Positions 11,554 through 45,663 of a DNA stretch of 64,000 bases are shown in pieces (the stretch's first letter is position 1; every line of letters starts with the position of its first letter). The stretch is taken from positions 7,556-71,555 of the forward strand of contig JAHKAP010000071.1 in the NCBI GenBank assembly GCA_018825985.1. Direction: 5' to 3'. Source of the DNA: Candidatus Omnitrophota bacterium (GTDB lineage: Bacteria > Omnitrophota > Gorgyraeia > Gygaellales > Profunditerraquicolaceae). Made by a program: the position numbers and the translations under genes. Below the pieces are notes generated by a model. That model made no database searches. It had not been told where the DNA came from and saw nothing but the letters and a program-made list of their open reading frames with translations.

Positions 11554-11562
11554 TCCTTTTTC

Positions 11563-11623
11563 TTAGGGACAGCGACTATTTTTCTTCATTATATCGATAG
11601 AAAAATAGTCGCTGTCCCTAATT
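11563..11623. repeat. REP element pair (inverted, hairpin-forming): TTAGGGACAGCGACTATTTTT...AAAAATAGTCGCTGTCCCTAA
   Basis: Perfect 21-bp inverted repeat with a 19-bp spacer. Read directly from the sequence. Confidence 0.9.
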
Positions 11624-30831: not shown

Positions 30832-32775
30832 TTAAACTGTCTCTTTTTTCTTTCCCGGGATTTTTGATTTTCCATCCTGGCTTTCATCTCTGCCATAATA
30901 CCTGTACCTGTAATGATAATACGGATACGCGGAAATAGATTCGGTTTGAGGCCGGGTATGATTTAAGATAACTCCGGCGATTTTCCCCCCTGCTGACTCC
31001 ATCTGGACCTTGGCCCTCATTAACGCCTCCCTGCTGGTCCTGCCTATTTCATATACCAGGACAACACAATCCATATTCGGGGCTAAGATGCTGGCGTCGG
31101 TAACCGGCAAAACCGGCGGTGAGTCAAAAATAATAACGTCAAATCGTGCACTAACCTTTTCGATCATGTCTTTCATTCTTTTAGATTCCAATATCTCTAC
31201 CGGGTTAGCCGGATGCTTACCCGAAGGCATTATCCAGATATTTTCAATACCCGGGGTCTTCCTCACTTCCTCAAATTTCATCTCTCCCAGCATAATATCG
31301 GTAATATTCATCAATATGGAATCTAAATCCACAGTGCCCATAAAAAATTCGTTTAACCCGGGTTCTTTTTTAATTCCGAATGTCCTGGACAATGCCGGCC
31401 TCCTTAAATCAGTAGAGACCAAAAGAGTTTTTAAACCTACCTGCCCCATTACTATACCTAAGTTACAGACTACGCAGCTTTTTCCCTCTTGCGGGCCGGA
31501 ACTGGTGACCATGATTGTTTTTCGGGAAGAACCAAGCTTTAGGTTAGTATTAATATTACGGTAAGACTCGGCTATCGGAGACTGAGGTTTATAATGAGAA
31601 ATCAGGCGGCAATATCTGGATTCTTCTTCGGTCTTATTTCTGGTCCAGAATCTATCTTTAAAATTAGCCAACAGGCTCTTTTTAATATTGGGATCGCGAT
31701 CTAAAGAAGGCACAACGCCTAAGACCGGCAACTTGATCACATTCTCTACGTCTTCTATGGTCCCGATCGAAGTATCCAGGGTTTCACTGATAAAAGCAAA
31801 AGCTATACCTAATATCACACCCAATATAGCGCCGATCAGGATCTTGACCCGGTTATCCTTTGGTATAGTCGCGACAGCGGTAACCGCCGGATCAACTATA
31901 GATACATCGCTTACTTTCTGGGCCTCAGTTATCCTTGCCTCCTCAAGCCTTTCTTTAAGCGTGCCATAGAGCTTCCTATTAACTTCTGCCTCCCGGCTGT
32001 ACCTAGCGTAATCAATATCCTGGCTGGAGAAACCTTGCATTTGCTTCTCTAGCTCTTTAATCTGCTCCTTAGTTTGTATCACTTTAGGGTGTTTAGCAGT
32101 ATAGCGCTGCTGCATCTCCGCCAATTGAAATTCCAAGTCCTGGAGCTTCTGCTGAGTTGGCTCAGATAACCTGACATTCCTGGCGCCCTTACCTAAGGTC
32201 TTAAGGCCATCCTCAGCATCTTTTATCCTCTTCTCTAAAGCTGCCAACTGTTCTGCAATAAATATTCTGGCCTGACTGGCTTGCTTGGATTTTTCTTTCA
32301 GATTCTCTTCAATATAAGATTCGGCGACTATATTAGCCAGGTTAACCGCTCCTTTAGCGGTTGAAGCGATAGCCGTAATCCTGATCATATTCGTGTCGCT
32401 GACCTTCTCAACTTCAATACTTTTTTGTAATTCAGTTATTGCTTCATTAATGTCCTCCATTGATGAATCAGGCCTGACTTTGCCCAGCCTAAGGACGACA
32501 TTTTTCATAACCGGAAAACCTTTAATCGTCCTGGCTTCCGACGCCATAATATTAGCGGGATTATACGCGATCCACTCAGTAAGTAAGCCGGCGATGGTCT
32601 TGCCCTGTTCTATTTTAATGGTTATACTGGAATGATATATCACGCTCTCTTTGGAAAACCCAATACTGAATATGCTGATAATAGTAACCAGTAAAAAAAT
32701 TGCCAGGATGGTATATTTTCTTTTGCGGAAGATGCGTAGATAATCTCTAAGATTTAACTCATATTGGGCCATCAA
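30832..32775 (-). CDS. Wzc/GumC-like polysaccharide co-polymerase with BY-kinase domain
   Basis: Wzz-like N-terminal TM and periplasmic domain, a coiled coil, Walker A SSGPQEGKS, Walker A-prime VLVSTDLRRP, and a C-terminal tyrosine cluster YPYYHYRYRYYG. Confidence 0.85.
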   Translation of the reverse strand: MMAQYELNLRDYLRIFRKRKYTILAIFLLVTIISIFSIGFSKESVIYHSSITIKIEQGKTIAGLLTEWIAYNPANIMASEARTIKGFPVMKNVVLRLGKVRPDSSMEDINEAITELQKSIEVEKVSDTNMIRITAIASTAKGAVNLANIVAESYIEENLKEKSKQASQARIFIAEQLAALEKRIKDAEDGLKTLGKGARNVRLSEPTQQKLQDLEFQLAEMQQRYTAKHPKVIQTKEQIKELEKQMQGFSSQDIDYARYSREAEVNRKLYGTLKERLEEARITEAQKVSDVSIVDPAVTAVATIPKDNRVKILIGAILGVILGIAFAFISETLDTSIGTIEDVENVIKLPVLGVVPSLDRDPNIKKSLLANFKDRFWTRNKTEEESRYCRLISHYKPQSPIAESYRNINTNLKLGSSRKTIMVTSSGPQEGKSCVVCNLGIVMGQVGLKTLLVSTDLRRPALSRTFGIKKEPGLNEFFMGTVDLDSILMNITDIMLGEMKFEEVRKTPGIENIWIMPSGKHPANPVEILESKRMKDMIEKVSARFDVIIFDSPPVLPVTDASILAPNMDCVVLVYEIGRTSREALMRAKVQMESAGGKIAGVILNHTRPQTESISAYPYYHYRYRYYGRDESQDGKSKIPGKKKETV

Positions 32776-32783
32776 TCACCTTT

Positions 32784-32845
32784 ATTAGGGACAGCGACTA
32801 TTTTTAAATTTAATATTATTTAAGAAAAATAGTCGCTGTCCCTAT
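32784..32845. repeat. REP element pair (inverted)
   Basis: ATTAGGGACAGCGACTATTTTT ... AAAAATAGTCGCTGTCCCTATT. It lies between wzc and the nucleotidyltransferase gene. Confidence 0.9.
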
Positions 32846-32867
32846 TATCACCTAACATACCATAAAA

Positions 32868-33944
32868 TCAACGAGTTAGCAATCTTTTTCTCAGTAGAAA
32901 TACCGCTTTTAGCGTTAATTTATAAACATCCTGGATCTTATTTTGGAGAAGTATATAGATAAGGCAGGGAAGGCCATAAAACTTTAATTTTTTTTGAATC
33001 AAGAATAGAATTGCCTTTCTTTGATAATCCGCATTGATCGTCTTCAGCCTAATTTGTTTAGGATCACGCGGTTTTAATGACCGGTAAGTATAATATAAAC
33101 AGTATGATAAAGTTCCTTCCAGGCCGAGTAATTTTGCCTCTTCTCTGGCGTCATTCCAGTCAATTCTATCTTGATAATTCCGGACGAATTCAAAGATATC
33201 TGTAAGGAGTATGAGCCTCTCAAAAGAGTGGCTGAAACTATGCAGGCACAGATGAAATAAATGATGCTGGCAGGATAGCGCCAGGGCGTTCGCTCCTGCT
33301 ATGTTAACGCTGGAAGCTTCGGACCAGATCTTTTCCGGGTTTACCCTACCGGCAATAAAACTCCTCATCCAGGTCGAAGTCAGAATATCCCAATGCAAAT
33401 CAATAGATATAGAAATACTTCTGAGGCGGTCGACTTTCGCGAACAAAACAGAATAAGATAATGGGTCATTAAAAGAAGTATTGATGCTATCAGCAGCGCT
33501 ATATCCTGAATCCAGCAGAACTTTGCCTATCCTGAAAAAGTCATCCTTTTTGATAAGAATATCCATATCCGACATCTGCCTTAAGGCGATATTTTTATAA
33601 ACAGCCTCGGCCAGAAAGATACCTTTCAAAAGGATAACCTTAATTTGACTTTGCTCAAAAATACTCAGCAGCCTTGCCAATTCCTCGTATATTAATGTAT
33701 TCCTGGCGCAGTTATTATAGTAAATTGATTCCAACTCCTTAAAAATCGCTGGCGGCAGATAGCCTTGAAAACCAAACCGGTTTAAATGATAATAAAGCAG
33801 ACAGGCAACGCCATGTTGTTTGGAGACCTTAAGCAGATAATCCCAATCAAGTCCTGACTTTAGTAATTCTTCGGCTTTAGTCAGCCTTGATTTATCGGGA
33901 TCGATAACAGAAAACAAAATAACTATCCGCTCTTCAATTCTCAT
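32868..33944 (-). CDS. Uncharacterised nucleotidyltransferase family protein (PF14907-like)
   Basis: ALRQMSDMDILIKKDDF carries a DxD nucleotidyltransferase motif. The overall length and pattern match the nucleotidyltransferases found beside HprK-like kinases in RiPP clusters. Confidence 0.55.
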   Translation of the reverse strand: MRIEERIVILFSVIDPDKSRLTKAEELLKSGLDWDYLLKVSKQHGVACLLYYHLNRFGFQGYLPPAIFKELESIYYNNCARNTLIYEELARLLSIFEQSQIKVILLKGIFLAEAVYKNIALRQMSDMDILIKKDDFFRIGKVLLDSGYSAADSINTSFNDPLSYSVLFAKVDRLRSISISIDLHWDILTSTWMRSFIAGRVNPEKIWSEASSVNIAGANALALSCQHHLFHLCLHSFSHSFERLILLTDIFEFVRNYQDRIDWNDAREEAKLLGLEGTLSYCLYYTYRSLKPRDPKQIRLKTINADYQRKAILFLIQKKLKFYGLPCLIYILLQNKIQDVYKLTLKAVFLLRKRLLTR

Positions 33945-33954
33945 ATTTTCTCAG

Positions 33955-34028
33955 GGACACCCTTGCAACTAAAGCTAAGGGTGTCCCCAATAGGGGACAC
34001 CCTGCCGATTAGCTGCGAGGGTGTCCCT
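33955..34028. repeat. Tandem GGGACACCC/GGGTGTCCC hairpins
   Basis: Hairpin 1 has stems at 33956-33964 and 33980-33988. Hairpin 2 has stems at 33994-34003 and 34020-34028. Together they fill the gap between the ABC exporter stop codon and the nucleotidyltransferase start codon. Confidence 0.8.
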
Positions 34029-34032
34029 GGGT

Positions 34033-35766
34033 TTACTGGGTGCCGAATAAATCGCGGAATCCGGGATCTTGTTTAATCAGGATTTGAGGTTTATCTATTA
34101 TAATAGCTCCGGGCCCGGATAAATAATAAACCGCATCCATACCCATAACAGTGGATAATCTATGGGAGACTACGATCAAAGTCATATCGGGCTGGGCCTG
34201 TTTAAGGTTGGATATTATCCTCTCCTCACTTAATGAATCCATTGCCGCAAAAGCTTCATCCAGGATCATGATCTTCGGTTTTTTTATCGCTGCCCGGGCC
34301 ATCGCGATCTTTTGCTTCTGGCCCTCGGAAATCCTGCAGGCATTCTCGCCGATAACTGTGTCAAAACCCGCGGTTAAATTGCTTGCTAAATCATCCACGC
34401 CACAGAGCCTGGCAGCCTCGGTCATTTCTTCTGTGCCCGCCTGATCCAAGCCATATTTGATATTATTGGCTATACTATCATTCCAAAGAAATGGTTCTTG
34501 CAAAGCAAAACCAACCTGGCTTTTTAACGTGCCAGGGTCTATTTCTCTGATATTATGGCCATCAATAAATATATCCCCTTCCCAGAGATCATACAACCCC
34601 AGGATCAAACTTAGAATTGTGGTTTTACCGCAGCCTGATCTACCGGCAATGGCTATCCGGCTGGCACCCGGCAGAGTAAAACTTAAATTTTTTAATATAC
34701 TCCTACCCGGACAATAGCCGAAACTGACATTTCTAAATATAATCTCTCCTTTTTTGAATATTGGCTTTGAGGTATTACTCCGGGCTGATGTATCCTGGTC
34801 GTCATTCAAAATTTTATCTATTCTTTCACAGGATATTAACCCGGTTAAAGCAGACTGGAAAAAACGGGCTAATTCATTTTCCAGGCCCACTAACTGGCCA
34901 AAATATACCATTATAGCGGTTAAACTGCCCAAAGACATCCTCCCCTTTATAACCTGATAACCGCCGTAAAACGTGATTATCCCGACCGCAGCCTTGCTTA
35001 ACATTTCGACCAAAAAACCAGATACAGTTTCCAATTTAAGGCTTTTAAGGCTGATCCCTGCGTAACTGATCAGCTTCTCCAGGTATGATCTTATGCTGGC
35101 TGTTTCTCTGCCGAATACCTTAATCAGTTGTATATGTGAGAAGGTTTCTTCTAAATACCGGTATATATTCTCAGAACTCCTGATTAGATCTTCAATGATT
35201 AAACGCATCTTCCTACCGAAATAACGGCTGGGTAAGAATAAAAAAGGAGAAATTAAAAACGAAATAAGAGTCATCTTCCAATTAAGATGAATAACAATTA
35301 CCAAGATGAGCAATAACCTGAATAAAACAAAAAAGATGGCCGGCACCCTGATAGTGATAAATTCCGCGATATTATCTATATCATAATTAAGTTTATAGAT
35401 ATGCTCAGCGCTTGTCTTATCTTTAAACCAGCCTAGGGAAAAACTCTGCAGGCGGATAAATACCGATTTATTCAGCTCATAATTGGCTTTAATTCTTATA
35501 TTGCGGTAGAAATAATCCTTGATTCTATTTGCTAAATCCGCGGCTAAATAGATCACACACCCTAACAGCGTAAGTATAGCGAAAGACTTAAAATCTTTTT
35601 TAACCAGGCCGACGTCAATAATAAACTTAGCCAGATAGGGGTTGATCAGGCTTAAAATTATACCGATATTGCTTAAAACAACCAGCCAAAACCAGAGCTT
35701 CTTATAGGGCGAGATATATTTAAAAAATTTTAATAATAATCTTAGGTTGGTGAATTTAAATTTCAT
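34033..35766 (-). CDS. ABC exporter, fused permease and ATPase, with no peptidase domain
   Basis: Six TM helices at the N-terminus. Walker A GRSGCGKTT, signature SEGQKQK, Walker B IMILDEA. Confidence 0.85.
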   Translation of the reverse strand: MKFKFTNLRLLLKFFKYISPYKKLWFWLVVLSNIGIILSLINPYLAKFIIDVGLVKKDFKSFAILTLLGCVIYLAADLANRIKDYFYRNIRIKANYELNKSVFIRLQSFSLGWFKDKTSAEHIYKLNYDIDNIAEFITIRVPAIFFVLFRLLLILVIVIHLNWKMTLISFLISPFLFLPSRYFGRKMRLIIEDLIRSSENIYRYLEETFSHIQLIKVFGRETASIRSYLEKLISYAGISLKSLKLETVSGFLVEMLSKAAVGIITFYGGYQVIKGRMSLGSLTAIMVYFGQLVGLENELARFFQSALTGLISCERIDKILNDDQDTSARSNTSKPIFKKGEIIFRNVSFGYCPGRSILKNLSFTLPGASRIAIAGRSGCGKTTILSLILGLYDLWEGDIFIDGHNIREIDPGTLKSQVGFALQEPFLWNDSIANNIKYGLDQAGTEEMTEAARLCGVDDLASNLTAGFDTVIGENACRISEGQKQKIAMARAAIKKPKIMILDEAFAAMDSLSEERIISNLKQAQPDMTLIVVSHRLSTVMGMDAVYYLSGPGAIIIDKPQILIKQDPGFRDLFGTQ

Positions 35767-36751
35767 GTTTTTTAAATAACCGTGTTAATCGACAGTAATA
35801 ATCCAGCGGTTTTTCCTTGCCGCCGGTTTCTAAATAGGCCTTTCCGGGGCACCAGCCGCATAAGGGCCTGAGGTTACAATCCCGGCATTTAGAATCAGTT
35901 TTAAACTCTTCCTTGGCCATATAAGATGATAACCTATTCAAACCTGACTTAATATCCGCCCTTAAAAGGTTTACTTTAGGCTTTCTTAATAAATCACACA
36001 AAAACATATTTCCGTAGGGATCAACGTAAATCCCGTCTGCGCTTGAGATCACGCAGGGATAGAAGCGGGATTCAATGTTTCGGGATGAAGAACCTTCGCA
36101 GCCATCATTACTTTGTTTTTTAAAATGGTATAACCCCAATACCTGTTCAGGGGTAATCCTTAGTTTGCAAGGCGCGATATCCCCATTTAAATTTGGATAT
36201 AAAATATGATTGGGGGTAAAATTTGAGCCTATCCCCTTGAGGTATTTTTTTATTTGCGGCAGGTGCTTAAAATTATCCTTAGTCACCTGGGTTTTGATTT
36301 TAAATTGCAGACATGAATCTAAAATTAACCCTATTCCGCGCATTGTTTTCGCAAACGAACCCTGTATTCGGGAGATTTTCTCGTATAGATCCTTGTCAAC
36401 CGCATTTAAGGTTATCTCAATTACAAATGGGGGATTTTTTTTTAGATATTTGATTATCCTACGATTCAAAGAATAACCATTGGTAAAAATAGTGGTGATA
36501 AAACCTTTTTTCCTGGCATAAGCGTAGATCTCCAGAAAATCATCCCTGACAATGGGGTCTCCGCCAGATAAACAGAGCCAGATAACCCCAGCGCAGGCAA
36601 GCCTGTCTAAAACAAATTTTACTTCTTTAGTAGTTAATTCCTTTTTAGAATAGGCTTTTTTGTTAAAACAATCGGTATAACAATGCCGGCAATGAAGGAC
36701 GCATCTAAAGGTTAATTCGAACCGGCAGGCGCTCGGCCGGTTAAGGCTCAT
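35756..36751 (-). CDS. Radical SAM / SPASM-domain peptide-modifying enzyme (paralogue 1)
   Basis: CVLHCRHC is the CxxxCxxC cluster. The C-terminal CRDCNLRPLCGWCPGKAYLETG is a SPASM motif. About 35% identical to 37735-38793. Confidence 0.8.
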   Translation of the reverse strand: MSLNRPSACRFELTFRCVLHCRHCYTDCFNKKAYSKKELTTKEVKFVLDRLACAGVIWLCLSGGDPIVRDDFLEIYAYARKKGFITTIFTNGYSLNRRIIKYLKKNPPFVIEITLNAVDKDLYEKISRIQGSFAKTMRGIGLILDSCLQFKIKTQVTKDNFKHLPQIKKYLKGIGSNFTPNHILYPNLNGDIAPCKLRITPEQVLGLYHFKKQSNDGCEGSSSRNIESRFYPCVISSADGIYVDPYGNMFLCDLLRKPKVNLLRADIKSGLNRLSSYMAKEEFKTDSKCRDCNLRPLCGWCPGKAYLETGGKEKPLDYYCRLTRLFKKHEI

Positions 36752-36798
36752 ATTTTTTAGATGGGTTTTTAAACTAAAATCTTTATACCGGGTTTCTT

Positions 36799-37731
36799 TC
36801 AGATCGACCTCACGAATGGAATAATGCTTTTACTCTTGATTAAACCTAAACTCAAACACGGCATATTCTTGACTAAATCCAAGCCTAAAAAAATAATATT
36901 TTCGGTTAATTTTCTATCCCAGAAATTCGGAAAAATATTCGGATAGAGGAGTTTGAATGCCTCAGCGGATGATATGGCTTTAACCGTATTATTCGTATAC
37001 TGGTAAATAAAAAAAAGCTTGTCTAACTCGGCCCGGCCAATATAAGAATTCTGAAAACCCCGGAATTCGCCGCACCAGGGAGAGCCGTAAATAAAAAACC
37101 TCCCCTTTACCTTGCGGACAATGACGTGGTCATCATTTAATACTTCGGCCCGGCTGTGCTCATGCCAAGTCCTGGCTAAAGTCGTCTTTCCCGCGCCTGA
37201 TCTGCCCATAAATACCAGGCCCTTGCCATTGCTATCCCTTATCCCTGCTCCGTGCAAGAAAATCCCTGATTTCCTTTGCGCGAAATAATTTATAAAAAGC
37301 ACCTGCAGAAAATCATAGGTCAGGTCAGCCACATTCCAAACCAGGCCTTTATCTTTTTTAGGGAGCACATAAACCCGGGCCCGGTCAAAAGCCTTATTAA
37401 AATAGGTTACCTGCTCTTTATCCTTTGCCACAGTCTTATAGATATAAAACCCATTTTTTTTAAGGACCTGCCAATTCTCAGTCCGATCCTGGGGATGGAT
37501 GACTTTAAATACATCAATCGCACCTGAAAGCTTTGGCAGGAAATTCTCAACCTCTACATCTATTTTTATATCGGATTTAACATTTTCCCTACTGACAAAA
37601 TTACTAAAGAATTGTTTAAACCAAGGGTTCTCTTCGCCCTTATGAAAAGCCTCATGGTAAAAAGCGCTTTTTATCTCAACTGTTACGCCGGCGATTTTAA
37701 GCCGGACCTTATTTGATTTTTTATCGAACAT
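36799..37731 (-). CDS. HprK-related P-loop kinase (HPr kinase C-terminal domain-like)
   Basis: LHGAGIRDSNGKGLVFMGRSGAGKTTLA...VLNDDHVIV aligns to the HPr kinase C-terminal domain ([25 protein letters not shown]...LVADD). Confidence 0.65.
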   Translation of the reverse strand: MFDKKSNKVRLKIAGVTVEIKSAFYHEAFHKGEENPWFKQFFSNFVSRENVKSDIKIDVEVENFLPKLSGAIDVFKVIHPQDRTENWQVLKKNGFYIYKTVAKDKEQVTYFNKAFDRARVYVLPKKDKGLVWNVADLTYDFLQVLFINYFAQRKSGIFLHGAGIRDSNGKGLVFMGRSGAGKTTLARTWHEHSRAEVLNDDHVIVRKVKGRFFIYGSPWCGEFRGFQNSYIGRAELDKLFFIYQYTNNTVKAISSAEAFKLLYPNIFPNFWDRKLTENIIFLGLDLVKNMPCLSLGLIKSKSIIPFVRSI

Positions 37732-37734
37732 CTT

Positions 37735-38793
37735 TTAATTTAAAACACCTGATTTTGCCAATTCGCAAAAGAACCTGACTGGTTTTTCCCGCTCTCCGGC
37801 CTCTAAATAAGCCCGGGCCGGGCACCAACGGCAAACCGGCCTTAACGCGCAATCCTGGCATTTGGAATCAGAATTAAACTCCTGGCTTAAGACCCTGGGA
37901 TTGATAGTTGAAAAACTTTTTTTTAAAGAAGCATCTCTTAAATTTACGCTGTATTCCTGGAAAAATACACAATACCTAAGCCTGCCGAATGGATCAATAA
38001 ATACTTTATTCTTACCGGCGTCGCATTGAAAGAGGTATTTCCTCTGCCTCGGTAATTCCGGGGCATCTTTAAACCTGCCATCTTGGCATTCGCTTGAGAT
38101 ATCCTGGTCCTGTTTAAAAACCGCAAAAATTTCTTTAGGGGAGAGCCGGTATTTACAAGGCGTTTTATCACCGTTAAGCCGGGGATATATCAATGGGTCA
38201 CATTTAAAATAATGCTTATTACCCGGTTTACCTAATACCTTTTCTGCCCATTGCTTAATCCCGGCTATCTCGTTTTTATTGCGCTTAAGCAAGTTAGATT
38301 TAATGATCACCGGAAGTTTTCTTTGGATCAAAAAGGCGATATTCATCATGGCCAAAGAAAAAGAACCATTTACCCGGGTTATCTTTTCATAGTTTTCTTT
38401 GTTAATACTGTTTACGGTTATTTCTATCGCGTACGGCGGGGATTTAGTTAGATAATCGATGGTCTTTTTATTAAAACCCAAGGCATTGGTAAATAAAGTG
38501 ACCAGAAATCCTTTTTCCCGGGCATAAACGTAAATATCTAAAAAATCCTCTCTTATTAAAGGCTCTCCTCCGGTTAAAGTCAACCAGATACAGCCTTCCC
38601 TGCGCAGGCTGCTGATCAGCCTCTTGATCTGCGTGGTATTGAGCTCATTTCCCTTATTTTCCGACCCCTTGCAAAAACAATGCGGGCATTTCAGATTACA
38701 CCGGTAGGTCAACTCAAGATGGGCGCTAAGAGGAAAGGATATTTTTTTAGTATTGAGTTTTTGATAAAAAAAATCGAGGTTGCGGCTCTTCAT
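37735..38793 (-). CDS. Radical SAM / SPASM-domain peptide-modifying enzyme (paralogue 2)
   Basis: CNLKCPHC is the cluster. The C-terminal CQDCALRPVCRWCPARAYLEAG is a SPASM motif. Confidence 0.8.
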   Translation of the reverse strand: MKSRNLDFFYQKLNTKKISFPLSAHLELTYRCNLKCPHCFCKGSENKGNELNTTQIKRLISSLRREGCIWLTLTGGEPLIREDFLDIYVYAREKGFLVTLFTNALGFNKKTIDYLTKSPPYAIEITVNSINKENYEKITRVNGSFSLAMMNIAFLIQRKLPVIIKSNLLKRNKNEIAGIKQWAEKVLGKPGNKHYFKCDPLIYPRLNGDKTPCKYRLSPKEIFAVFKQDQDISSECQDGRFKDAPELPRQRKYLFQCDAGKNKVFIDPFGRLRYCVFFQEYSVNLRDASLKKSFSTINPRVLSQEFNSDSKCQDCALRPVCRWCPARAYLEAGEREKPVRFFCELAKSGVLN

Positions 38794-38806
38794 TCTCAGA
38801 AATAGA

Positions 38807-38866
38807 ATTAGGGACAGCGACTATTTTTTTAACTGTAAAATTAAAAAATAGTCGCTGTCCCTAATT
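38807..38866. repeat. REP element pair (inverted)
   Basis: ATTAGGGACAGCGACTATTTTTTT ... AAAAAATAGTCGCTGTCCCTAATT. It lies between the radical-SAM gene and the precursor ORF. Confidence 0.9.
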
Positions 38867-38869
38867 AAT

Positions 38870-39073
38870 TTAACTATATTGCCCGCCGCTAGACCATTTT
38901 TGGCTGGATAAAACGACCTTGGTAGCAGGGGTCGTCCCCTCGCAAATATTTTGCTTTGGGGCACTATTACCGGCCATATATCCGGTGTTATAACAGGGGC
39001 AGACCAGGATAGCCTGTTCAGGGTTTAGTTTTATCCGGGTTATCGCAGGATTAAATTTCTTTTTTGCGCTCAT
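38870..39073 (-). CDS. Candidate RiPP precursor peptide (67 aa)
   Basis: The small ORF MSAKKKFNPAITRIKLNPEQAILVCPCYNTGYMAGNSAPKQNICEGTTPATKVVLSSQKWSSGGQYS is preceded by a perfect Shine-Dalgarno sequence (AAAGGAGG, 7 nt upstream of the ATG). It sits between the PqqD-like and radical-SAM genes and is flanked by REP hairpins. Confidence 0.45.
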   Translation of the reverse strand: MSAKKKFNPAITRIKLNPEQAILVCPCYNTGYMAGNSAPKQNICEGTTPATKVVLSSQKWSSGGQYS

Positions 39074-39087
39074 CTTCCCCTCCTTTA

Positions 39088-39111
39088 ATTAGGGACAGCG
39101 ACTATTTTTTT
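39088..39111. repeat. REP element (single copy)
   Basis: ATTAGGGACAGCGACTATTTTTTT. It lies between the precursor ORF and the PqqD-like gene. Confidence 0.85.
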
Positions 39112-39394
39112 AATAACTGATCGCTTTAGCCTCTTTTAAATCACTAAGGAATCCTGATAGAGTTTTATCAATCTGTTCGGCTGGGCCGTCAAATTCATCC
39201 AATATTTGTTTTTTCACCTGGGCAATGGTATTTTTGCCGTTTAGCATCTTCCAGATCAAAGAACCTGTTTCATTTAAAGAATAAATACAATTGATATCGT
39301 CAGAGTGTTTATATATAGGCACCAGGATGGTTTCACCTGCGATATCCCTGGCGACCATATTAGGATTCTTCTTAATTACCGTATTTGGCTTCAT
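39110..39394 (-). CDS. PqqD-family protein (RiPP recognition element)
   Basis: 94 aa. VARDIAGETILVP...YSLNETGSLIWKMLNG...IAQVKKQILDEF matches the PqqD/RRE fold pattern. Confidence 0.65.
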   Translation of the reverse strand: MKPNTVIKKNPNMVARDIAGETILVPIYKHSDDINCIYSLNETGSLIWKMLNGKNTIAQVKKQILDEFDGPAEQIDKTLSGFLSDLKEAKAISY

Positions 39395-39407
39395 TTTAAT
39401 TAGGGAC

Positions 39408-39442
39408 AGCGGCTATTTTCTTAATTAAATAGTCGCTGTCCC
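39408..39442. repeat. REP element pair (inverted, short spacer, one copy with G-to-A variant)
   Basis: ATTAGGGACAGCGGCTATTTTC..AAATAGTCGCTGTCCCC. It overlaps the stop codon of the S24 peptidase gene. Confidence 0.85.
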
Positions 39443-39813
39443 CTCTCTATTAACCAAGCGATTAATGGCGCGATTATAACTATAGCCCTGTAAAGAAACT
39501 GCTGATTTTCGGCGCCACAGTTGATTAATTTATCATTTTTTATTATACCACAAACCCGGCCTAAAAGCATTTCTTCAGTTATTTTTTCCGGCGCTGATAA
39601 TGAAAGGTCTCCCCGGGTATAAAGTAAGTAATTTTCCCCGGGTTTATCTTTTCTTATCAAGCGATGGCAAACAATCTGATTGCCGGAATTATATAAGAGC
39701 AAATCCCCTGTTTTTAAATCCTTAAGGGGAGTTTTTCTGACAATTACCTTCTGGCCTGACTTTAAGAAAGGCCACATACTTTGCCCGCTAACCTCAAAAA
39801 ACAATAAATCCAT
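39421..39813 (-). CDS. S24/S26-family (LexA / signal peptidase I-like) serine peptidase domain protein
   Basis: EVSGQSMWPFL is the Ser nucleophile box. IVCHRLIRK is the Lys general-base region. 130 aa, standalone. Confidence 0.55.
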   Translation of the reverse strand: MDLLFFEVSGQSMWPFLKSGQKVIVRKTPLKDLKTGDLLLYNSGNQIVCHRLIRKDKPGENYLLYTRGDLSLSAPEKITEEMLLGRVCGIIKNDKLINCGAENQQFLYRAIVIIAPLIAWLIERGQRLFN

Positions 39814-39837
39814 ATTAATAGGGACAGCGACTATTTT

Positions 39838-40515
39838 CTATTCTTCCTTCGGCCTGCCTACTGGCAATTGAAACAACCTTTTGTGAAGATTTTTCTCTAG
39901 CGTTTCTATAAACCCGCTTGTTCCCAAAGGACGACCGGTAAGTGTGTATTTTCTAATATTTTGTAAGATATTACCTTCTTCCGAATAATCAATATAATTT
40001 CGCCAATAGTTATAGGACATACCTGTTATTTCAAAAAAATTTTCAAACTCAAAAATCTTATCTTTTTGTTGGTTGGTATGAGCCAATGCACTCGACCATT
40101 CCCATTCCCATGGCTTTTTTACCAATCCCGCACGCACTGGGTTTCGTTCAACATAACGAACAGCTAGTATCAAATGAGCTTCATCTAAAGCGCATGAATA
40201 AAAACGGCCTTGCCATAGATGCCCGCGTTGCTGCAGTTTTTTGTTAAAATATTGCGCATATCGCATATGGGCAATATTAAATGTCTTGGCCAATGAATCA
40301 TTTTCTGCAGGAATACCCACAAAATGAACATGATTTTGCATTAAACAATAGGCTAAAATACAAAGGCCATATTGTTTGCTATATTCTTTTATCCATTCAA
40401 GGTATTGTTTCCTATCATGAACATCAGAGAAAACATCCTGTTGATAATTCCCTCTCTGGGTAATGTGATGTGGCAACCCTCTCGCTACAACTCTTGCAAT
40501 TCTAGTCATATTCAA
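39838..40515 (-). CDS. REP-associated tyrosine transposase (RAYT, IS200/IS605-like HuH Y1 transposase)
   Basis: The HuH motif is MQNHVHFV and the catalytic Tyr lies in LAVRYVERNPVRAGLV. It is flanked on both sides by REP copies in inverted orientation (39818-39839 and 40592-40612). Confidence 0.8.
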   Translation of the reverse strand: MNMTRIARVVARGLPHHITQRGNYQQDVFSDVHDRKQYLEWIKEYSKQYGLCILAYCLMQNHVHFVGIPAENDSLAKTFNIAHMRYAQYFNKKLQQRGHLWQGRFYSCALDEAHLILAVRYVERNPVRAGLVKKPWEWEWSSALAHTNQQKDKIFEFENFFEITGMSYNYWRNYIDYSEEGNILQNIRKYTLTGRPLGTSGFIETLEKNLHKRLFQLPVGRPKEE

Positions 40516-40591
40516 TCCCTCCTCTCTACTATTAATAGACGTAGAGAAAAAGAATTTCTAACTAAAATATTTCACATATTTCAAAGAACAA

Positions 40592-40612
40592 TAAAATAGT
40601 CGCTGTCCCTAT
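40592..40612. repeat. REP element (single copy) upstream of RAYT
   Basis: AAAATAGTCGCTGTCCCTATT. Confidence 0.85.
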
Positions 40613-40687
40613 TAAATATTCAAAAAACAATAAATTATTCATTTTCTATTTAAGAGATAGTCCATCTCATAGTTAATGATTGACGGA

Positions 40688-41611
40688 CTATTGGCCAGTT
40701 GAAACTTTCGTAGATACGCCCCAGGTCTGAGATTCTTTATAAGTATACGCGCCCTTGGATATAGGATCGAGAACTTGGCTAAGGAAATAGCTTAAATCAG
40801 AGACGAATTTTCTGGGTACAAAGACAATATCCTGGGACTGCAGAATAACGTTCTGGCGCAAATCACCCTTAAAGACCTTGGCGACATTTATCCTCTGTAT
40901 ATTGGGGGCATTAAATCCTCCCCGGATCAAAACTGTGCTGGAGGGCACGCCATCCCGGGTCAAGCCACCGGCCATAGAGATCGCTTCCATCAGGGTCCGG
41001 GCGCCGGTAACTGAATAAAGGCCGGGCGCGTTAACCTGGCCCAATATCATGACCCTGGCCCCTCCCATCTTCTTTAAAGAAATAGAAACCTCAGGATATT
41101 TAATGAAATCTTTTAGCTTTTCAGTAATAACCTCATCCAGTCCCGGGATGGTCAGGCCGGCAGCCTGGATATCTCCAACCAGAGGAAAAGAGATCTTTCC
41201 GTCAGGGCGGACAATCACATCCTGATCAAGGTCCTGATTCTGCCATACCGTAATACGCAGGTTATCGTCCTCTCCGATCAGATACTGGTTTACATTAGCC
41301 GGGGTTTGAGCCTTAATAGCTACAATCAGATCAGCTGTTTTTTCCAAGGATTGATTTTTATTATCGGAAACTGCAGGCTTAACAATAGCTTTATTCGGCT
41401 CAGGTTTTAGCGGATTAGCCAAATTCATAGCCTGATTGTATTCGTCTTCGGCATCCTTAAACTTTCCCTGTTGATAATAAAGGTTACCCCTTAAATAATG
41501 CTCCCTTATCATATCCTGGGTATCATTATACTCGGAATAAACCGGACCCCAGATTAAAACAATAAATAATACGGTTATATAAATATTATTTTTGATGAGG
41601 CGCAATGGCAT
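40688..41611 (-). CDS. Wza/GumB-like outer-membrane polysaccharide export protein (PES motif and SLBB domains)
   Basis: LRITVWQNQDLDQDVIVRPDGKISFPLVGDIQAAGLT (Poly_export) and MILGQVNAPGLYSV...LMEAISMAGGL (SLBB). The start was moved to M13 to remove the overlap. Confidence 0.75.
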   Translation of the reverse strand: MPLRLIKNNIYITVLFIVLIWGPVYSEYNDTQDMIREHYLRGNLYYQQGKFKDAEDEYNQAMNLANPLKPEPNKAIVKPAVSDNKNQSLEKTADLIVAIKAQTPANVNQYLIGEDDNLRITVWQNQDLDQDVIVRPDGKISFPLVGDIQAAGLTIPGLDEVITEKLKDFIKYPEVSISLKKMGGARVMILGQVNAPGLYSVTGARTLMEAISMAGGLTRDGVPSSTVLIRGGFNAPNIQRINVAKVFKGDLRQNVILQSQDIVFVPRKFVSDLSYFLSQVLDPISKGAYTYKESQTWGVSTKVSTGQ

Positions 41612-41612
41612 T

Positions 41613-43127
41613 TTAGTTTTGCTTATCCGATTCCAGGATGACTTCAATCTTGCGTTTCAGATCATCGGATTTCTGTTTTACTTTGGGATCAATCGCTGAA
41701 CCGGTTATGGACTGCCCGGAGGGAGAATTTCTTTCCTGAAGGGCGGCATTAAGTTTCAACACGGTAGACAGGTCATCCAGGGTTTTCCTTTGACGAGCCC
41801 TGTTTTCAGCCAGTTCTTTCTCTAGCTCAGCTGAACGCAATCTTAAGCTAGCCACCTCATCCCTTAAAGTATCCATTTCTTTTCTGCGGTCGGAGAGTTC
41901 TTTTTCTTTCGCAGCCACAAAATCAGAAAGCTGATTCACCTGCATTTTTAAACTGTTAAAAGACAGGTCGGTTTCCTGCAGCCTGGCCAGTTTAAGCTGA
42001 AGCGATTTATTTTCATCTTCAAATTTAGTCAACTGTTGGGTAAGGTAATTAAGGTTTTTCTGAAGGGAATCAGCCAGATCGTTCTTTTTAGCCAGTTCAT
42101 CTTTCATATCCCGCAGCCGGTATTGAGAAGAGACTTTTTCCGCCTCAACCTCTTTAAATTTATCCCGGTCGATCTGAGCCTCGCTTAAATTCTTCTCTAA
42201 AACAGTTATCCTGTTCTGCAGGGCGGTTATTTTAGCTATTGATTCTTTGGCCTCTTTTTTGGCCTGGTCCAGATCCAGTTCTTTCCTGGCTAAGATCTCG
42301 GATAGCCTGGTCAACTGCAAAGAGCCGTTAGCTTCGCCTGGTTCTTTGAGATTACTTGGCAGTCTGCCTGCTTTAGCCCGGGATACCTCGGATTCCAGGC
42401 TCCTGACCTGATTTTCTTTTTCAGCCAGGCTCGCCTTTAATTTATTTATATTATCAATAAAAGCCTGGGTTGCATTACCCCTGTCGCTAGTATCTTTCTT
42501 GGAAACGCCCAGCCTCACCTGTAATTCTTTATTGGCGTCCATCAAAATCACCTGGGCCTGCTTTAACTTGGCCAATTCATTTTTCTGCTTATCTATCTCA
42601 TCATCCTTTATAAGGGCAGCTTTCTCAAACTCTTCCATTTTTTTCTTTAAGGGAGAGATGAATTTCTTATCCACATTACCCAGATCATCCTTCACCCGCC
42701 TTGACTCTTCTAATATCTGGCTGAATTCCCTGGTTAGATTCTGCAGGCGGCTTGAGATACTTAAGTTTGTCTCTTGTAATGCGGATTTTTCAGTCCTTAA
42801 CCGGTCGATCTCACGGCTAAGCTGCTCGATCGTGCCCTGGGAATTACTTAAAGCAGACTTGATCCCCTGGATATCGCGCAGCTCATTCAGGCGTTTTTCT
42901 TTTTCTATCAATGATGATTTTACCTCTTCTTTTTCTTTGAGCGCTTTTTTCAATGAATCATTGAGCCTGGACCTTTCAGCCTTAAACTTAACTGAAACGG
43001 TAGAAAAAAATAAGACGAATGCTATAATGACAATTACCAGATAAACAAACTTTCCGTATTTTGACGCACGCATAGCAAGCCACAATCCAAACATTATTTT
43101 TATCCCTCTTTTAAGTATTCCAGGCAA
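41613..43127 (-). CDS. Membrane-anchored coiled-coil protein
   Basis: N-terminal TM helix (FVYLVIVIIAFVLFF) followed by about 450 aa of heptad-rich E/K/L/Q sequence. Confidence 0.5.
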   Translation of the reverse strand: MPGILKRGIKIMFGLWLAMRASKYGKFVYLVIVIIAFVLFFSTVSVKFKAERSRLNDSLKKALKEKEEVKSSLIEKEKRLNELRDIQGIKSALSNSQGTIEQLSREIDRLRTEKSALQETNLSISSRLQNLTREFSQILEESRRVKDDLGNVDKKFISPLKKKMEEFEKAALIKDDEIDKQKNELAKLKQAQVILMDANKELQVRLGVSKKDTSDRGNATQAFIDNINKLKASLAEKENQVRSLESEVSRAKAGRLPSNLKEPGEANGSLQLTRLSEILARKELDLDQAKKEAKESIAKITALQNRITVLEKNLSEAQIDRDKFKEVEAEKVSSQYRLRDMKDELAKKNDLADSLQKNLNYLTQQLTKFEDENKSLQLKLARLQETDLSFNSLKMQVNQLSDFVAAKEKELSDRRKEMDTLRDEVASLRLRSAELEKELAENRARQRKTLDDLSTVLKLNAALQERNSPSGQSITGSAIDPKVKQKSDDLKRKIEVILESDKQN

Positions 43128-44162: not shown

Positions 44163-45038
44163 TTATATATCTAATTTCTTACCCTGCCCGTCGGAATAAG
44201 CAGATGGGGTTGAAGAAGTGGGAACATCGGATTCCGAGTATTTCAAGTCTTCGGTTATCTTTACAATGGTTTTTCTATCAATTATCTTTAAACCGCTGCC
44301 GAAACCGATTAATAAAGCCAAATCACAAACAGTATTGATCTTACGAGGGGTGCCGCTGGCAGCCAGATATATTTCTCTAAAACAATCGTCTTCAAATACC
44401 GGCCGGGTTGAACCAGCCACCTCTAAACGATGAAGGATATATTCCCTGGTCTCAAACTCATCCAGCTTGGTCAAATGGTATTTGACCGCCATCCTTTGGG
44501 TCAACTGGGGAAGGTTAGCGATTACGCTTTTTAATTCAGGCTGGCCGATCATGATGATAGTCAGAAGAAACGCGTTATCCAGCTGAAAATTCAGGAGCAG
44601 TCTTAATTCCTCAAAAATATCGGTCCCTTGTATGGCCTGGGCTTCATCAATGACTATAACGGTGTGCTTATCGACGTTAAAATTGGAGTAAAATATCTTA
44701 TGCAGTTGATGAAACAATTCAACCTTGGAATCGCTGACCTGGCCTCCGGTCAGTTGATGAGTAATCTCCTGTATAAATTCTAAGGCGGTTAAACGGGGAT
44801 TAAGAATAAAAACCGCGTGGTAGCGGTTTTCCTGCTGTAACTCATGCCAGAGGACCCGGCTTAAAAGGGTTTTTCCGCTGCCGAATTCTCCGGTCAAAAG
44901 AGCGGCGCCTTTATGTTCCCTGACCACATACAAAAGCCTGGCCAGCGCCTCCTTGTGTTTCTGGGAATAATAAATAAAACGCGGGTCCGGCGTATTCTCA
45001 AAAGGCTTTTCTTTTAATCCCCAAAAGTCCTCATACAT
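44163..45038 (-). CDS. ExeA/GspA-like AAA+ ATPase (module 1)
   Basis: MYEDFWGLKEKPFENTPDPRFIYYSQKHKEALARLLYVV...LLTGEFGSGKTLLSR. The N-terminal ExeA signature and the Walker A motif are both present. Confidence 0.85.
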   Translation of the reverse strand: MYEDFWGLKEKPFENTPDPRFIYYSQKHKEALARLLYVVREHKGAALLTGEFGSGKTLLSRVLWHELQQENRYHAVFILNPRLTALEFIQEITHQLTGGQVSDSKVELFHQLHKIFYSNFNVDKHTVIVIDEAQAIQGTDIFEELRLLLNFQLDNAFLLTIIMIGQPELKSVIANLPQLTQRMAVKYHLTKLDEFETREYILHRLEVAGSTRPVFEDDCFREIYLAASGTPRKINTVCDLALLIGFGSGLKIIDRKTIVKITEDLKYSESDVPTSSTPSAYSDGQGKKLDI

Positions 45039-45043
45039 ACTTT

Positions 45044-45646: not shown

Positions 45647-45663
45647 CTCCCTCCTCCTATTTT

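Follow-up and report, generated by a model that had tools for sequence, protein, structure and literature searches.

In the exopolysaccharide export locus of an uncultured Omnitrophota bacterium (Candidatus Omnitrophota bacterium, GCA_018825985.1, contig JAHKAP010000071.1, positions 7,556 to 71,555; this whole stretch of 64,000 nucleotides is referred to as the window), an intact cassette of eight co-directional genes lies between genes for Wza- and Wzc-like proteins (Table 1). The gene content and position given in a preliminary description based on the sequence alone were confirmed, although that description had missed the Y1/RAYT-type transposase gene located between wza and the cassette. 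Pfam was run on 52 of the 54 non-nested open reading frames of at least 120 aa in the window and revealed neither an Asn-synthetase-like cyclase nor a transglutaminase-like protease, the two exceptions being the 1230-aa coiled-coil ORF at 48656-52348, which was scanned with NCBIfam only, and the rSAM-1-nested minus-strand ORF 37944-38171.

Table 1. Features of the cassette and its immediate surroundings, in window coordinates. Cut-offs are those of the respective NCBIfam models.
Position	Strand	Feature	Length (aa)	Profile matches
30832-32775	-	Wzc-like chain-length determinant and tyrosine autokinase (downstream neighbour)		GNVR and AAA_31 domains; TIGR01007, 161.9 bits (above cut-off of 108)
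32868-33944	-	PF14907 (NTP_transf_5) nucleotidyltransferase-like enzyme	358	PF14907, 193.4 bits
33952-34029		Nested 37-nt-arm palindrome in the ABC-NTase intergenic gap		
34033-35766	-	MsbA/HlyB-type ABC exporter without a C39 peptidase domain	577	ABC_membrane, 127.9 bits; ABC_tran, 97.2 bits; TIGR02203 and TIGR02204, 282 and 281 bits (below cut-offs)
35756-36751	-	Radical SAM enzyme 2 with SPASM-type cysteines	331	PF04055, 60.2 bits
36799-37731	-	HprK/PEPCK-fold P-loop kinase	310	PF27840 ('ScmC')
37735-38793	-	Radical SAM enzyme 1 with SPASM-type auxiliary cysteines	352	PF04055, 68.8 bits
38806-38866		Perfect 24-nt inverted repeat (REP-type doublet) immediately after the precursor gene		
38870-39073	-	Precursor peptide	67	Family HMM, 66.8 bits
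39110-39394	-	Discrete PqqD-family RiPP recognition element (RRE)	94	PF05402, 52.4 bits; lasso_PqqD_Bac, 34.6 bits (best NCBIfam hit, below cut-off of 80)
39421-39813	-	Archaeal/ER-type signal peptidase I homologue with C-terminal hydrophobic helix; predicted leader peptidase	130	PF00717, 25.9 bits; TIGR02228, 43.9 bits (best NCBIfam hit, below cut-off of 51.85)
39838-40515	-	Y1/RAYT-type transposase gene; local insertion, not part of the cassette		PF01797, 54.6 bits; NF047646, 70.8 bits (below cut-off of 80)
40688-41647	-	Wza-like polysaccharide export protein (upstream neighbour)		Poly_export, 83.9 bits, plus SLBB; TIGR03027, 122.9 bits (below cut-off)

The small open reading frame, MSAKKKFNPAITRIKLNPEQAILVCPCYNTGYMAGNSAPKQNICEGTTPATKVVLSSQKWSSGGQYS, is a real precursor gene. 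It is preceded by AGGAGG 6 nt before the ATG, and homologues of 60-66% identity are encoded at the same position in two related loci (L001 and L002; designations of this type refer to the related loci collected here). A family HMM found members in 78 of 82 related loci, and at least 3063 clusters match in the 5.8-billion-protein set. The leader, which runs to about residue 21, is conserved, while the cores vary but keep their cysteines (Cys25, Cys27 and Cys44 in the window). Leu16, Ala21 and Cys27 are invariant, Lys4, Pro9 and Leu23 are at least 90% conserved, and 97 of 98 full-length members end in Ser or Thr (Ser67 in the window). Of the top 117 database hits, 110 have exactly three cysteines and 102 end in GS or GT. 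The inverted repeat that follows the gene may act as an RNA hairpin or processing barrier (folding energy -36 kcal/mol, z -9.4); however, it belongs to a repeat family with 10 copies in the window and is therefore not cassette-specific. The palindrome between the ABC exporter and nucleotidyltransferase genes has a folding energy of -64 kcal/mol (z -9.3).

We then asked whether the residues expected to be important for function are retained in the encoded proteins. In the peptidase, G10-x-S12-M13-x-P15, H50-R51 and D69 are conserved in 46 homologues, and a profile built from 16 homologues hits human SEC11A at E 1.7e-8, aligned over the SM-P, HR and GD motifs, which corresponds to the Ser/His/Asp residues of LppS (PMC13381572). 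In the PqqD protein, Asn41 is conserved in 68 homologues and position 78 covaries with the leader aromatic residue: Asp at this position is 97% conserved only where the leader has Tyr at P-3, and the 37-residue spacing equals that between N33 and D70 of LppB (PMC13381572). The kinase keeps the His-Lys-Asp-Asp residues (H160, K182, D200 and D201), and G108, D126-x-D128, H184 and D249 of the nucleotidyltransferase-like enzyme are conserved in 41 homologues. The latter belongs to the same Pfam family as LppN, while PsmN is described in its paper only as an uncharacterised NTP transferase.

The two radical SAM enzymes are paralogues with 36% identity over 330 residues, and the stop of the gene for enzyme 2 overlaps the start of the ABC exporter gene by 11 nt. 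Both carry CX3CX2C, followed by CX13-17GX4C, CX2CX5CX2C and a last cysteine; in enzyme 1, CX3CX2C is found at residue 32, CX17GX4C at 257, CX2CX5CX2C at 312 and the last cysteine is C343. The Pfam SPASM model itself gave no hit at E<=0.01. Among NCBIfam models, both score highest against those for the heme enzymes AhbD and NirJ (102-114 bits against cut-offs of 500), and no curated RiPP-maturase cut-off is reached. The best PDB hits of enzyme 1 are SkfB, PqqE, Tes, SuiB and CteB. Enzyme 1 is the counterpart of the single radical SAM enzyme in simpler cassettes, as the enzymes from loci with only one such gene match it best, at E about 1e-70.

We next examined the genetic environment of related cassettes. 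Among 59 loci of at least 12 kb, a radical SAM gene is present in 57, PqqD in 54, the nucleotidyltransferase in 35, the S26 peptidase in 29 and the ABC exporter in 28, all of these being lower bounds from single-sequence phmmer searches. Gene fusions were seen in relatives, namely S26-NTase, NTase-S26, S26-ABC and NTase-Wza. Of the same 59 loci, 31 have a wza, wzc, AAA22 or wzy-type gene within 10 kb. The same cassette lies directly after wza in L001, L002, L033 and L034, and a simpler version with one radical SAM gene is found there in L050 and L082; L050 also shows wzc downstream and so matches the slot between wza and wzc occupied in the window. In other relatives, the cassette lies just upstream of a contiguous wza-wzc pair. 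Linkage to AAA22, HD, Wza and Wzc recurs in Desulfobacterota and Aminicenantes MAGs. Of three loci sampled in other phyla from the peptide side, two have the full AAA22, HD, Wza and Wzc set, while the third (L085) has AAA22 and HD and its contig ends about 350 bp downstream of the peptide gene.

Taken together, we are fairly confident that this is an intact cassette for maturing and exporting a ribosomal peptide and that it is a radical-SAM-bearing relative of the linear polyphosphorylated peptide (LPP) and paeninodin-type phospho-peptide systems. Gene identities, intact catalytic residues, conservation of the precursor and the recurrent gene neighborhood are shown by the analysis, whereas expression in this uncultured organism (a MAG), all chemistry and every step of the following pathway are inferred. 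The precursor would be bound through its N-terminal leader (K-F-x-P-x-I...L...E-Q-A-I/V-L) by the discrete PqqD protein. The two radical SAM enzymes, which have no recognition domain of their own, would modify the core, most probably by cross-linking the three conserved cysteines to other residues as thioethers, although confidence in this chemistry is low to moderate. The kinase would phosphorylate the side chain of the C-terminal Ser67, possibly several times, by analogy with PadeK and PsmK, which phosphorylate the C-terminal Ser of the precursor (PMC6993621; PMC9266682), and in view of the near-universal C-terminal Ser/Thr. In LPP, however, the phosphorylated residue is Ser3 of the core, such that the site could differ here. 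The PF14907 enzyme would add a further group such as a hexose to that phosphate, just as PsmN is needed for hexoses on the phosphate (PMC6993621; PMC9266682), although LppN showed no activity in the heterologous host. The membrane-tethered signal peptidase homologue would remove the leader in an RRE-assisted manner, as does LppS, an RRE-dependent leader peptidase (PMC13381572). The likely site is after the invariant Ala21, but this remains speculative: the -3 residue of the proposed EQA site is Glu and the residue before Cys25 is Val, and neither is a classical signal-peptidase site. Finally, the MsbA-like pump would export the product, most likely a leaderless, probably cysteine-crosslinked peptide phosphorylated on its C-terminal Ser. 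As the cassette is a conserved companion of a Wza/Wzc/Wzy exopolysaccharide locus, its product probably acts with, or on, the cell-surface polysaccharide or biofilm and not as an unrelated antibiotic.

The interpretation offered in the preliminary description is thus partly supported. It correctly proposed a system for ribosomal peptide modification, linked the kinase, PF14907 and PqqD triad to paeninodin-type chemistry, and stated that radical SAM enzymes are present in place of a lasso cyclase and a transglutaminase-like (B2) protease, neither of which was found in the window. The statement that the gene set does not match any characterised RiPP class is not supported or outdated, since archaeal-type signal peptidase, discrete RRE, HprK kinase, NTP_transf_5 and MsbA-like pump, embedded in polysaccharide loci, constitute the defining core of the LPP family published in May 2026 (Popov et al. 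2026, PMC13381572). What is new here is the addition of radical SAM enzymes, the different leader and core, and the occurrence outside Bacillota. The suggestion of an insertion into the exopolysaccharide export operon is likewise not supported.

Among alternative explanations, it is possible, though unlikely, that the cassette makes the peptide part of a peptide-polysaccharide conjugate, in which the phosphorylated C-terminal Ser serves, through the PF14907 enzyme and the many neighboring glycosyltransferases, as the attachment point for a glycan, the conjugate is handled by the Wzx/Wzy/Wzc/Wza machinery or the ABC pump, and the crosslinked peptide would cap, prime or anchor the exopolysaccharide. 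This view is in line with the persistent embedding in exopolysaccharide loci across phyla, with one continuous ORF fusing PF14907, a transmembrane helix and Wza-like domains (L083, a locus sampled from the peptide side), with the PsmN-dependent addition of hexoses on phospho-Ser, with the more than 15 glycosyl- and methyl-transferase genes downstream in the window, and with the fact that the LPP authors could not find the final product and note that surrounding polysaccharide genes may modify it further. On the other hand, only one NTase-Wza fusion was seen among 85 loci, about half of the loci show no exopolysaccharide gene within 10 kb (though contigs are short and the detection method is weak), a dedicated ABC exporter suggests a free peptide product, and there is no direct evidence for any glycan on these peptides.

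Even less likely is an independent RiPP cluster (antibiotic or signal) that was inserted by horizontal transfer between wza and wzc and has no functional tie to the polysaccharide genes. In favor of this reading, the RAYT gene and REP elements lie at and inside the cassette, the position relative to wza differs between relatives, LPP and paeninodin clusters show a patchy, HGT-like distribution in Bacilli, and variable cores and multiple paralogues resemble bacteriocin diversification. However, there is no compositional break (G+C 0.36-0.44 inside against 0.38-0.44 outside), the RAYT gene, which is bracketed by inverted REP copies at 39816-39834 and 40596-40614, is absent from the same slot in L001 and L002, the REP family also occurs 27 kb away at 11561-11623, and the linkage to exopolysaccharide genes recurs as outlined above. 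Only the RAYT gene looks newly arrived.

That the radical SAM enzymes instead modify a sugar or lipid of the polysaccharide pathway and the peptide is only phosphorylated and trimmed, as in LPP, is very unlikely. In favor of this reading, their best HMM scores are to non-peptide enzymes, the window has another radical SAM/SPASM enzyme in a clear sugar-modification context at 2947-4107, and LPP systems work without any such enzyme. However, a radical SAM gene accompanies the kinase in 57 of the 59 loci, the precursor gene lies directly next to one in the loci examined, including the window, their number rises (one, then two or three) as cores get longer and richer in cysteine, the cysteines are the only conserved core residues apart from the C-terminal Ser, the closest solved structures are the peptide maturases SkfB, PqqE, SuiB and CteB, and a discrete PqqD protein is the usual partner of peptide-modifying radical SAM enzymes (PqqE/PqqD, MftC/MftB).

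Among known systems, sactipeptide and ranthipeptide maturation (AlbA, SkfB, PapB, CteB) likewise relies on radical SAM enzymes with seven auxiliary-cluster cysteines, here acting by inference on Cys-containing leader-bearing peptides, and SkfB is the closest solved structure by sequence. However, the enzymes described here have no fused RRE domain and use a discrete PqqD, all curated maturase models are far below cut-off, thioether formation is a proposal only, and phosphorylation, nucleotidyltransferase tailoring and a signal-peptidase-type leader protease are not features of those classes. The SynChlorMet (Scm) cassette of NCBIfam/TIGRFAMs, defined bioinformatically only and without a paper in the literature searched, follows the same four-protein logic of an HprK-like P-loop protein (ScmC), a PqqD protein (ScmD) and two radical SAM/SPASM paralogues (ScmE and ScmF); every window protein scores far below the equivalog cut-offs (ScmC 17 against 125, ScmD 32 against 100, ScmE 61-64 against 400 and ScmF 54-65 against 400).

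Paeninodin/pseudomycoidin-type phosphorylated lasso peptide clusters share the HprK-type kinase with the His-Lys-Asp-Asp motif, a PF14907-type NTP transferase with a DxD motif, a discrete PqqD RRE (the best NCBIfam hit of the window's PqqD is the lasso B1 model), an ABC exporter and precursors with a strictly conserved C-terminal Ser. They differ in that the window has no macrolactam synthetase and no B2 protease, in the predicted removal of the leader by a serine signal-peptidase homologue, and in the presence of radical SAM enzymes and Cys-containing cores. With the LPP clusters of Bacillota (Popov et al., Nat Commun 2026, PMC13381572), the cassette shares, as judged from family assignments, the same five core enzyme families: the archaeal-type signal peptidase (TIGR02228-like), the discrete PqqD RRE, the HprK-like kinase (LppK is a kinase), NTP_transf_5 (PF14907) and the MsbA-like ABC pump. 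Both also have one or more small precursors with a conserved N-terminal leader and a variable C-terminal part, a proline-centered RRE-binding motif with the Asn that fixes it, and a location in polysaccharide biosynthesis loci (capsular polysaccharide loci in the case of LPP). In contrast, two radical SAM enzymes with SPASM-type cysteines are present here, while the LPP co-occurrence table lists none. The leader lacks the YxxPxVLxHQxIxFETxxS consensus beyond the xxPx[I/V] part, cores keep three or more cysteines and a C-terminal Ser/Thr, and Ser3 of the core, the LppK site, is not conserved (Val24 in the window). Finally, the host is a member of the Omnitrophota and relatives of the cassette are common and labelled as several other phyla, mostly outside Bacillota, to which LPPs were reported to be restricted.

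Within the window, every gene from about 268 to 63822 lies on the minus strand, and the segment singled out in the preliminary description, 32868-39813, runs exactly from the stop of a PF14907 gene to the start of a small peptidase gene. The genes listed there were all recovered, and the observation itself is thus confirmed. The source is a Candidatus Omnitrophota MAG, and the G+C content across the cassette (0.36-0.44) is the same as in the flanks. A scan of 32600-41800 for promoters and terminators was uninformative, as the counts were no higher than in shuffled sequences.

Features of the cassette, its flanking genes (in order of transcription), other elements of the window and related loci (L numbers denote loci carrying relatives of the cassette)
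Feature	Coordinates	Size	Main evidence or remark
wza-like gene	40688-41647	319 aa	Poly_export plus SLBB
Y1/RAYT-type transposase gene	39838-40515	225 aa	PF01797, 54.6 bits
S24/S26 peptidase	39421-39813	130 aa	PF00717, 25.9 bits
PqqD	39110-39394	94 aa	PF05402, 52.4 bits (cut-off 23.4)
Small ORF	38870-39073	67 aa	AGGAGG 6 nt before ATG
Radical SAM 1	37735-38793	352 aa	PF04055, 68.8 bits
P-loop kinase-like protein	36799-37731	310 aa	Weak HMM hits, fold match
Radical SAM 2	35756-36751	331 aa	PF04055, 60.2 bits
ABC exporter	34033-35766	577 aa	ABC_membrane plus ABC_tran, no peptidase domain
PF14907 enzyme	32868-33944	358 aa	193 bits
wzc	30832-32775	647 aa	TIGR01007, 161.9 bits
REP-like motif	11561-11623, 32783-32847, 38806-38866, 39087-39105, 39398-39442, 39816-39834, 40596-40614	19 nt (motif)	10 occurrences in the window, 0.02 expected
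Nested palindrome	33952-34029	37-nt arms	RNA folding energy -64 kcal/mol, z -9.3
Third radical SAM enzyme	2947-4107 (minus strand)		Clear Pfam SPASM hit
PD-(D/E)XK nuclease family gene	8470-8871 (minus strand)		PDDEXK_3, 122 bits
Two secretin plus AAA22-ATPase modules	44163-48422 and 52487-55868		
Coiled-coil ORF between these modules	48656-52348	1230 aa	
Domain fusions in relatives	L058:5882-7468, L071:4836-6467, L027:9118-10839, L022:3520-5418, L036:4937-6547, L026:12002-13153, L054:10878-11912, L083:10763-12979		
Toxin-antitoxin-type genes within a one-rSAM cassette	L084:6124-13330		PIN, ParE and two MNT/Polbeta-HepT pairs
Truncated precursor paralogues	L005:4612-4728, L011:2576-2692, L013:3377-3496, L020:8920-9051	38-43 aa	

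The two radical-SAM enzymes of the cassette are paralogues with 36% identity over 330 residues. Both carry a CX3CX2C motif followed by CX13GX4C or CX17GX4C, CX2CX5CX2C and a last cysteine. Set against the seven-cysteine auxiliary pattern of SPASM-domain maturases (CX9-15GX4C ... CX2CX5CX3C ... C), the CX2CX5CX2C motif is one residue shorter than canonical, and the Pfam SPASM model (PF13186) gave no hit at E<=0.01. No NCBIfam maturase model comes near its cut-off. The nearest solved structures by sequence are SkfB, PqqE, Tes, SuiB and CteB; SkfB and AlbA are among the nearest relatives but score below their cut-offs. The enzymes start directly with the SAM-cluster motif, so they have no fused recognition domain. 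The peptidase keeps G-x-S12-M-x-P, H50-R51 and D69 in 46 homologues, and a 16-sequence profile finds the human signal-peptidase catalytic subunits SEC11A and SEC11C at E 1.7e-8 and 3.6e-8, aligned over those motifs. It is therefore an archaeal/ER-type (SipW-like) signal peptidase homologue with a C-terminal hydrophobic helix. The PF14907 enzyme keeps G108, D126-x-D128, H184 and D249. For the kinase, a sequence-only search of the PDB with a profile returned only generic P-loop hits (HprK at E 0.07), and a comparison of folds was needed instead. In NCBIfam scans of both cassette types described below, no curated family reached its cut-off for the peptide, the kinase, the nucleotidyltransferase (NTase) or the radical-SAM enzymes.

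The small ORF is a real precursor. Two homologues of 60-66% identity lie at the same place (wza, peptidase, PqqD, peptide, rSAM and so on) in two other Omnitrophota contigs (L001 and L002). A genome-wide scan with the kinase alignment returned 93 relatives, of which 80 loci were retrieved, and the proteins of the window were mapped onto their ORFs with phmmer. An HMM of the peptide found members in 78 of 82 loci, often as two to six paralogues. L16, A21 and C27 are invariant and K4, P9 and L23 are at least 90% conserved, while the rest of the core is hypervariable; 97 of 98 full-length members end in Ser (86) or Thr (11). The truncated paralogues found in four loci keep the full leader and the C-x-C but stop a few residues later and do not end in Ser; they may be decayed copies or leader-only peptides. 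A profile search of 5.8 billion proteins gave at least 3063 clusters at E<=1e-3. None of the 120 listed hits carries a Pfam domain or any source name beyond ‘hypothetical’, ‘uncharacterized’ or ‘unnamed protein product’, and of the best 117, 110 have exactly three cysteines and 102 end in Gly-Ser or Gly-Thr.

Two cassette architectures emerged from this comparison. In the window type, close relatives, mostly from Omnitrophota, have peptidase, PqqD, peptide(s), rSAM 1, often a third rSAM, kinase, rSAM 2, ABC and NTase. The simpler type occurs in MAGs labelled as Omnitrophota, Aminicenantes, Desulfobacterota/Deltaproteobacteria, Nitrospirota, Nitrospinae, KSB1, WOR-3 and Desantisbacteria, in the order PqqD, one rSAM, a 47-65-aa peptide (Y-x-K-P-x-I-x-x-V-x-L-x-x-E-E-A-V-L-x-x-C-K...C...C...G-S), kinase, peptidase and NTase, and its single rSAM matches rSAM 1 best. 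Gene fusions in relatives tie the parts together: peptidase-NTase in both orders, peptidase-ABC, which is analogous to peptidase-containing bacteriocin exporters, peptidase-GNAT acetyltransferase, and one continuous ORF for an NTase, a transmembrane helix and a Wza-like part. In the 59 loci of at least 12 kb, the kinase co-occurs with an rSAM in 57, PqqD in 54, NTase in 35, peptidase in 29 and ABC in 28, all of which are lower bounds.

The window is one long EPS locus. From position 1 to about 30000 it encodes glycosyltransferases, methyltransferases, MBOAT, DegT, Wzx and Wzy, with the PD-(D/E)XK nuclease family gene in the middle of the glycosyltransferase cluster. The third radical SAM enzyme of the window lies next to DegT aminotransferase, methyltransferase, WbqC and PIG-L genes, so it is probably a sugar-modifying enzyme of the EPS pathway and not part of the peptide cassette. 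Upstream of the cassette lie wza, a coiled-coil protein, an HD-GYP-type protein, an AAA22 ATPase, a TPR protein and a secretin. The two separate secretin plus AAA22-ATPase modules, with the coiled-coil ORF between them, are located upstream of the EPS genes, and the gene order secretin, TPR, 200-aa, AAA22, HD and coiled-coil is conserved in L001 and L050. Membership of the locus in an exosortase/PEP-CTERM system was considered and rejected, as the flanking ATPase (232 bits with the XrtA-associated ATPase model) and Wza score below the XrtA-system cut-offs and no exosortase was found in the window.

The preliminary description had proposed that the cassette was inserted into the EPS export operon, but the cassette is not a recent insertion. 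L050 carries the one-rSAM version between wza and wzc, L082 carries it directly after wza, and both have the same upstream genes. L021, L023, L027, L029 and L039 carry the cassette immediately upstream of a contiguous wza-wzc pair, and 31 of the 59 long loci have an EPS-export gene within 10 kb. Of three loci sampled from the peptide side instead of the kinase side, L083 and L084 show the full AAA22, HD, PqqD, rSAM, peptide, kinase, peptidase, NTase, Wza and Wzc set, in L084 with several toxin-antitoxin-type genes interspersed between the genes of its one-rSAM cassette, whereas L085 shows AAA22, HD, PqqD, rSAM and the peptide before its contig ends. What is locally new is the RAYT gene, which is absent from this slot in L001 and L002. 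It is bracketed by inverted copies of the REP-like motif (ATAGTCGCTGTCCCTAATT), most copies of which form hairpin doublets in intergenic gaps of the cassette. The nested palindrome between the ABC and PF14907 genes, with four copies of AGGGTGTCCC[C/T], is not repeated elsewhere in the window and could be a processing or attenuation site.

The general picture is that of a RiPP-like system with lasso-type tailoring and radical-SAM maturases, as had been proposed, and this main interpretation is largely right, although the accompanying claims of an insertion and of a system matching no characterized class did not hold up, so that the interpretation is supported only in part. Our analysis establishes the identity and intactness of the eight genes, the reality of the precursor family with its conserved features, and the genomic linkage. 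The functional steps, in contrast, are inferred: RRE-dependent delivery of the precursor, binding of auxiliary clusters by the SPASM-type cysteines, radical-SAM modification of the Cys-containing core, for which thioethers are the most likely chemistry although the three conserved core cysteines are only indirect evidence, phosphorylation and its site, further decoration of the phosphate by the PF14907 enzyme, leader removal by the signal-peptidase homologue, and export by the ABC pump. If the Pro of the leader is aligned with LppA P-13, the cut would fall after the invariant Ala21.

The cross-phylum EPS linkage argues against an unrelated antibiotic island and leaves open a role in the matrix or as a peptide-glycan conjugate. 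In the most far-reaching version of the latter, which we consider unlikely but which is not excluded, the cassette would make a cysteine-crosslinked peptide whose phosphorylated C-terminal serine is the covalent attachment point for the exopolysaccharide, or for a glycan built by the surrounding glycosyltransferases. This would be a ribosomal-peptide-primed or peptide-capped polysaccharide, widespread in Omnitrophota, Desulfobacterota, Aminicenantes and other phyla, and it would also explain why LPP and paeninodin clusters sit in capsule loci. A peptide-derived cofactor resembling PQQ or mycofactocin was rejected because the cores are hypervariable and loci often carry several divergent paralogues.

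Literature searches on HprK-related kinases, on RiPPs combining radical SAM enzymes with HPr kinases, on RiPPs of Omnitrophota, on PF14907 and on SynChlorMet found no description of this rSAM-containing cassette. With regard to the SynChlorMet cassette (TIGR04248-TIGR04251), the proteins of the window do not reach the equivalog cut-offs, with scores of 17.4 against 125 for ScmC, 32.2 against 100 for ScmD, 64.2 and 60.8 against 400 for ScmE, and 64.9 and 53.6 against 400 for ScmF. In paeninodin and pseudomycoidin clusters, the HprK-type kinase phosphorylates the side chain of the strictly conserved C-terminal Ser of the precursor, and the uncharacterized NTP transferase PsmN is required for one or two hexoses on that phosphate (PMC6993621; PMC9266682). 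The window shares with paeninodin-type lasso systems a precursor with a C-terminal Ser (Ser67), an HprK-like kinase and a B1-type RRE, for which lasso_PqqD_Bac is the best model, albeit at 34.6 bits against a cut-off of 80. Neither an ATP-dependent macrolactam synthetase (Asn-synthetase homologue) nor a transglutaminase-like B2 leader protease was found when Pfam was run on 52 of the 54 non-nested ORFs of at least 120 aa, the 1230-aa coiled-coil ORF having been scanned with NCBIfam only.

The closest correspondence is with the ‘linear polyphosphorylated peptides’ (LPP) described by Popov et al. (Nat Commun, May 2026, PMC13381572). LPP clusters encode an archaeal-type signal peptidase (TIGR02228), a discrete PqqD RRE, an HprK-like kinase, NTP_transf_5 and an MsbA-like pump, and are embedded in capsular polysaccharide loci. 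Their precursors carry a YxxPxVLxHQxIxFETxxS leader, LppK polyphosphorylates Ser3 of the core, LppS (S29, H68, D93) removes the leader only when the RRE presents it, and LppN was silent in the heterologous host. The family is stated to be restricted to Bacillota, with a final product and role that are unknown; the text and supplements contain no radical-SAM or non-Bacillota entries, and the co-occurrence table lists no radical-SAM domain. The enzyme families of this core are all present in the window. S12, H50 and D69 of the peptidase correspond to the Ser/His/Asp catalytic set, and TIGR02228 is its best NCBIfam hit, although at 43.9 bits against a cut-off of 51.85, while the homologue from L054 passes at 62.9 bits; the discrete PqqD-type RRE, the HprK-like kinase and the PF14907 enzyme are likewise present, and the MsbA-like ABC transporter scores 282 and 281 bits with TIGR02203 and TIGR02204. 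The leader, KKFNPAITRIKLNPEQAIL, does not match the LPP motif: only the Pro and the following Ile fit, Tyr is replaced by Phe one position later, and there is no HQ or FET. Nor is the cassette free of other backbone-modifying enzymes, as a cassette for a linear product would be, since it contains two radical-SAM genes, and the residue equivalent to Ser3 is Val24 and is not conserved as Ser.

One detail supports a shared recognition mechanism. The window family keeps Asn41 in the RRE, and Asp at position 78 is 97% conserved where the leader has Tyr three residues before the Pro, but is relaxed (Glu or Thr) where Tyr is replaced by a Phe one position later. The 41-to-78 spacing of 37 residues equals that of LppB N33 and D70, which bind the leader Pro and Tyr. 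The window changes the picture of the LPP family. The same core of peptidase, RRE, kinase, nucleotidyltransferase and pump exists in a much larger, multi-phylum population with at least 3063 precursor clusters, in which it has recruited one to three radical-SAM enzymes, its precursors keep three cysteines and a C-terminal Ser, and it is linked across phyla to Wza/Wzc-type polysaccharide export genes. This provides a second, independent line of evidence that these phospho-peptides work with surface polysaccharides, supplies thousands of natural sequence variants for working out the chemistry, and points to a probable new combination of modifications, namely radical-SAM crosslinks plus C-terminal phospho-Ser decoration. 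The cassette of the window has the complete LPP enzyme core plus two radical-SAM enzymes, has a different leader and core, and sits in a different phylum.
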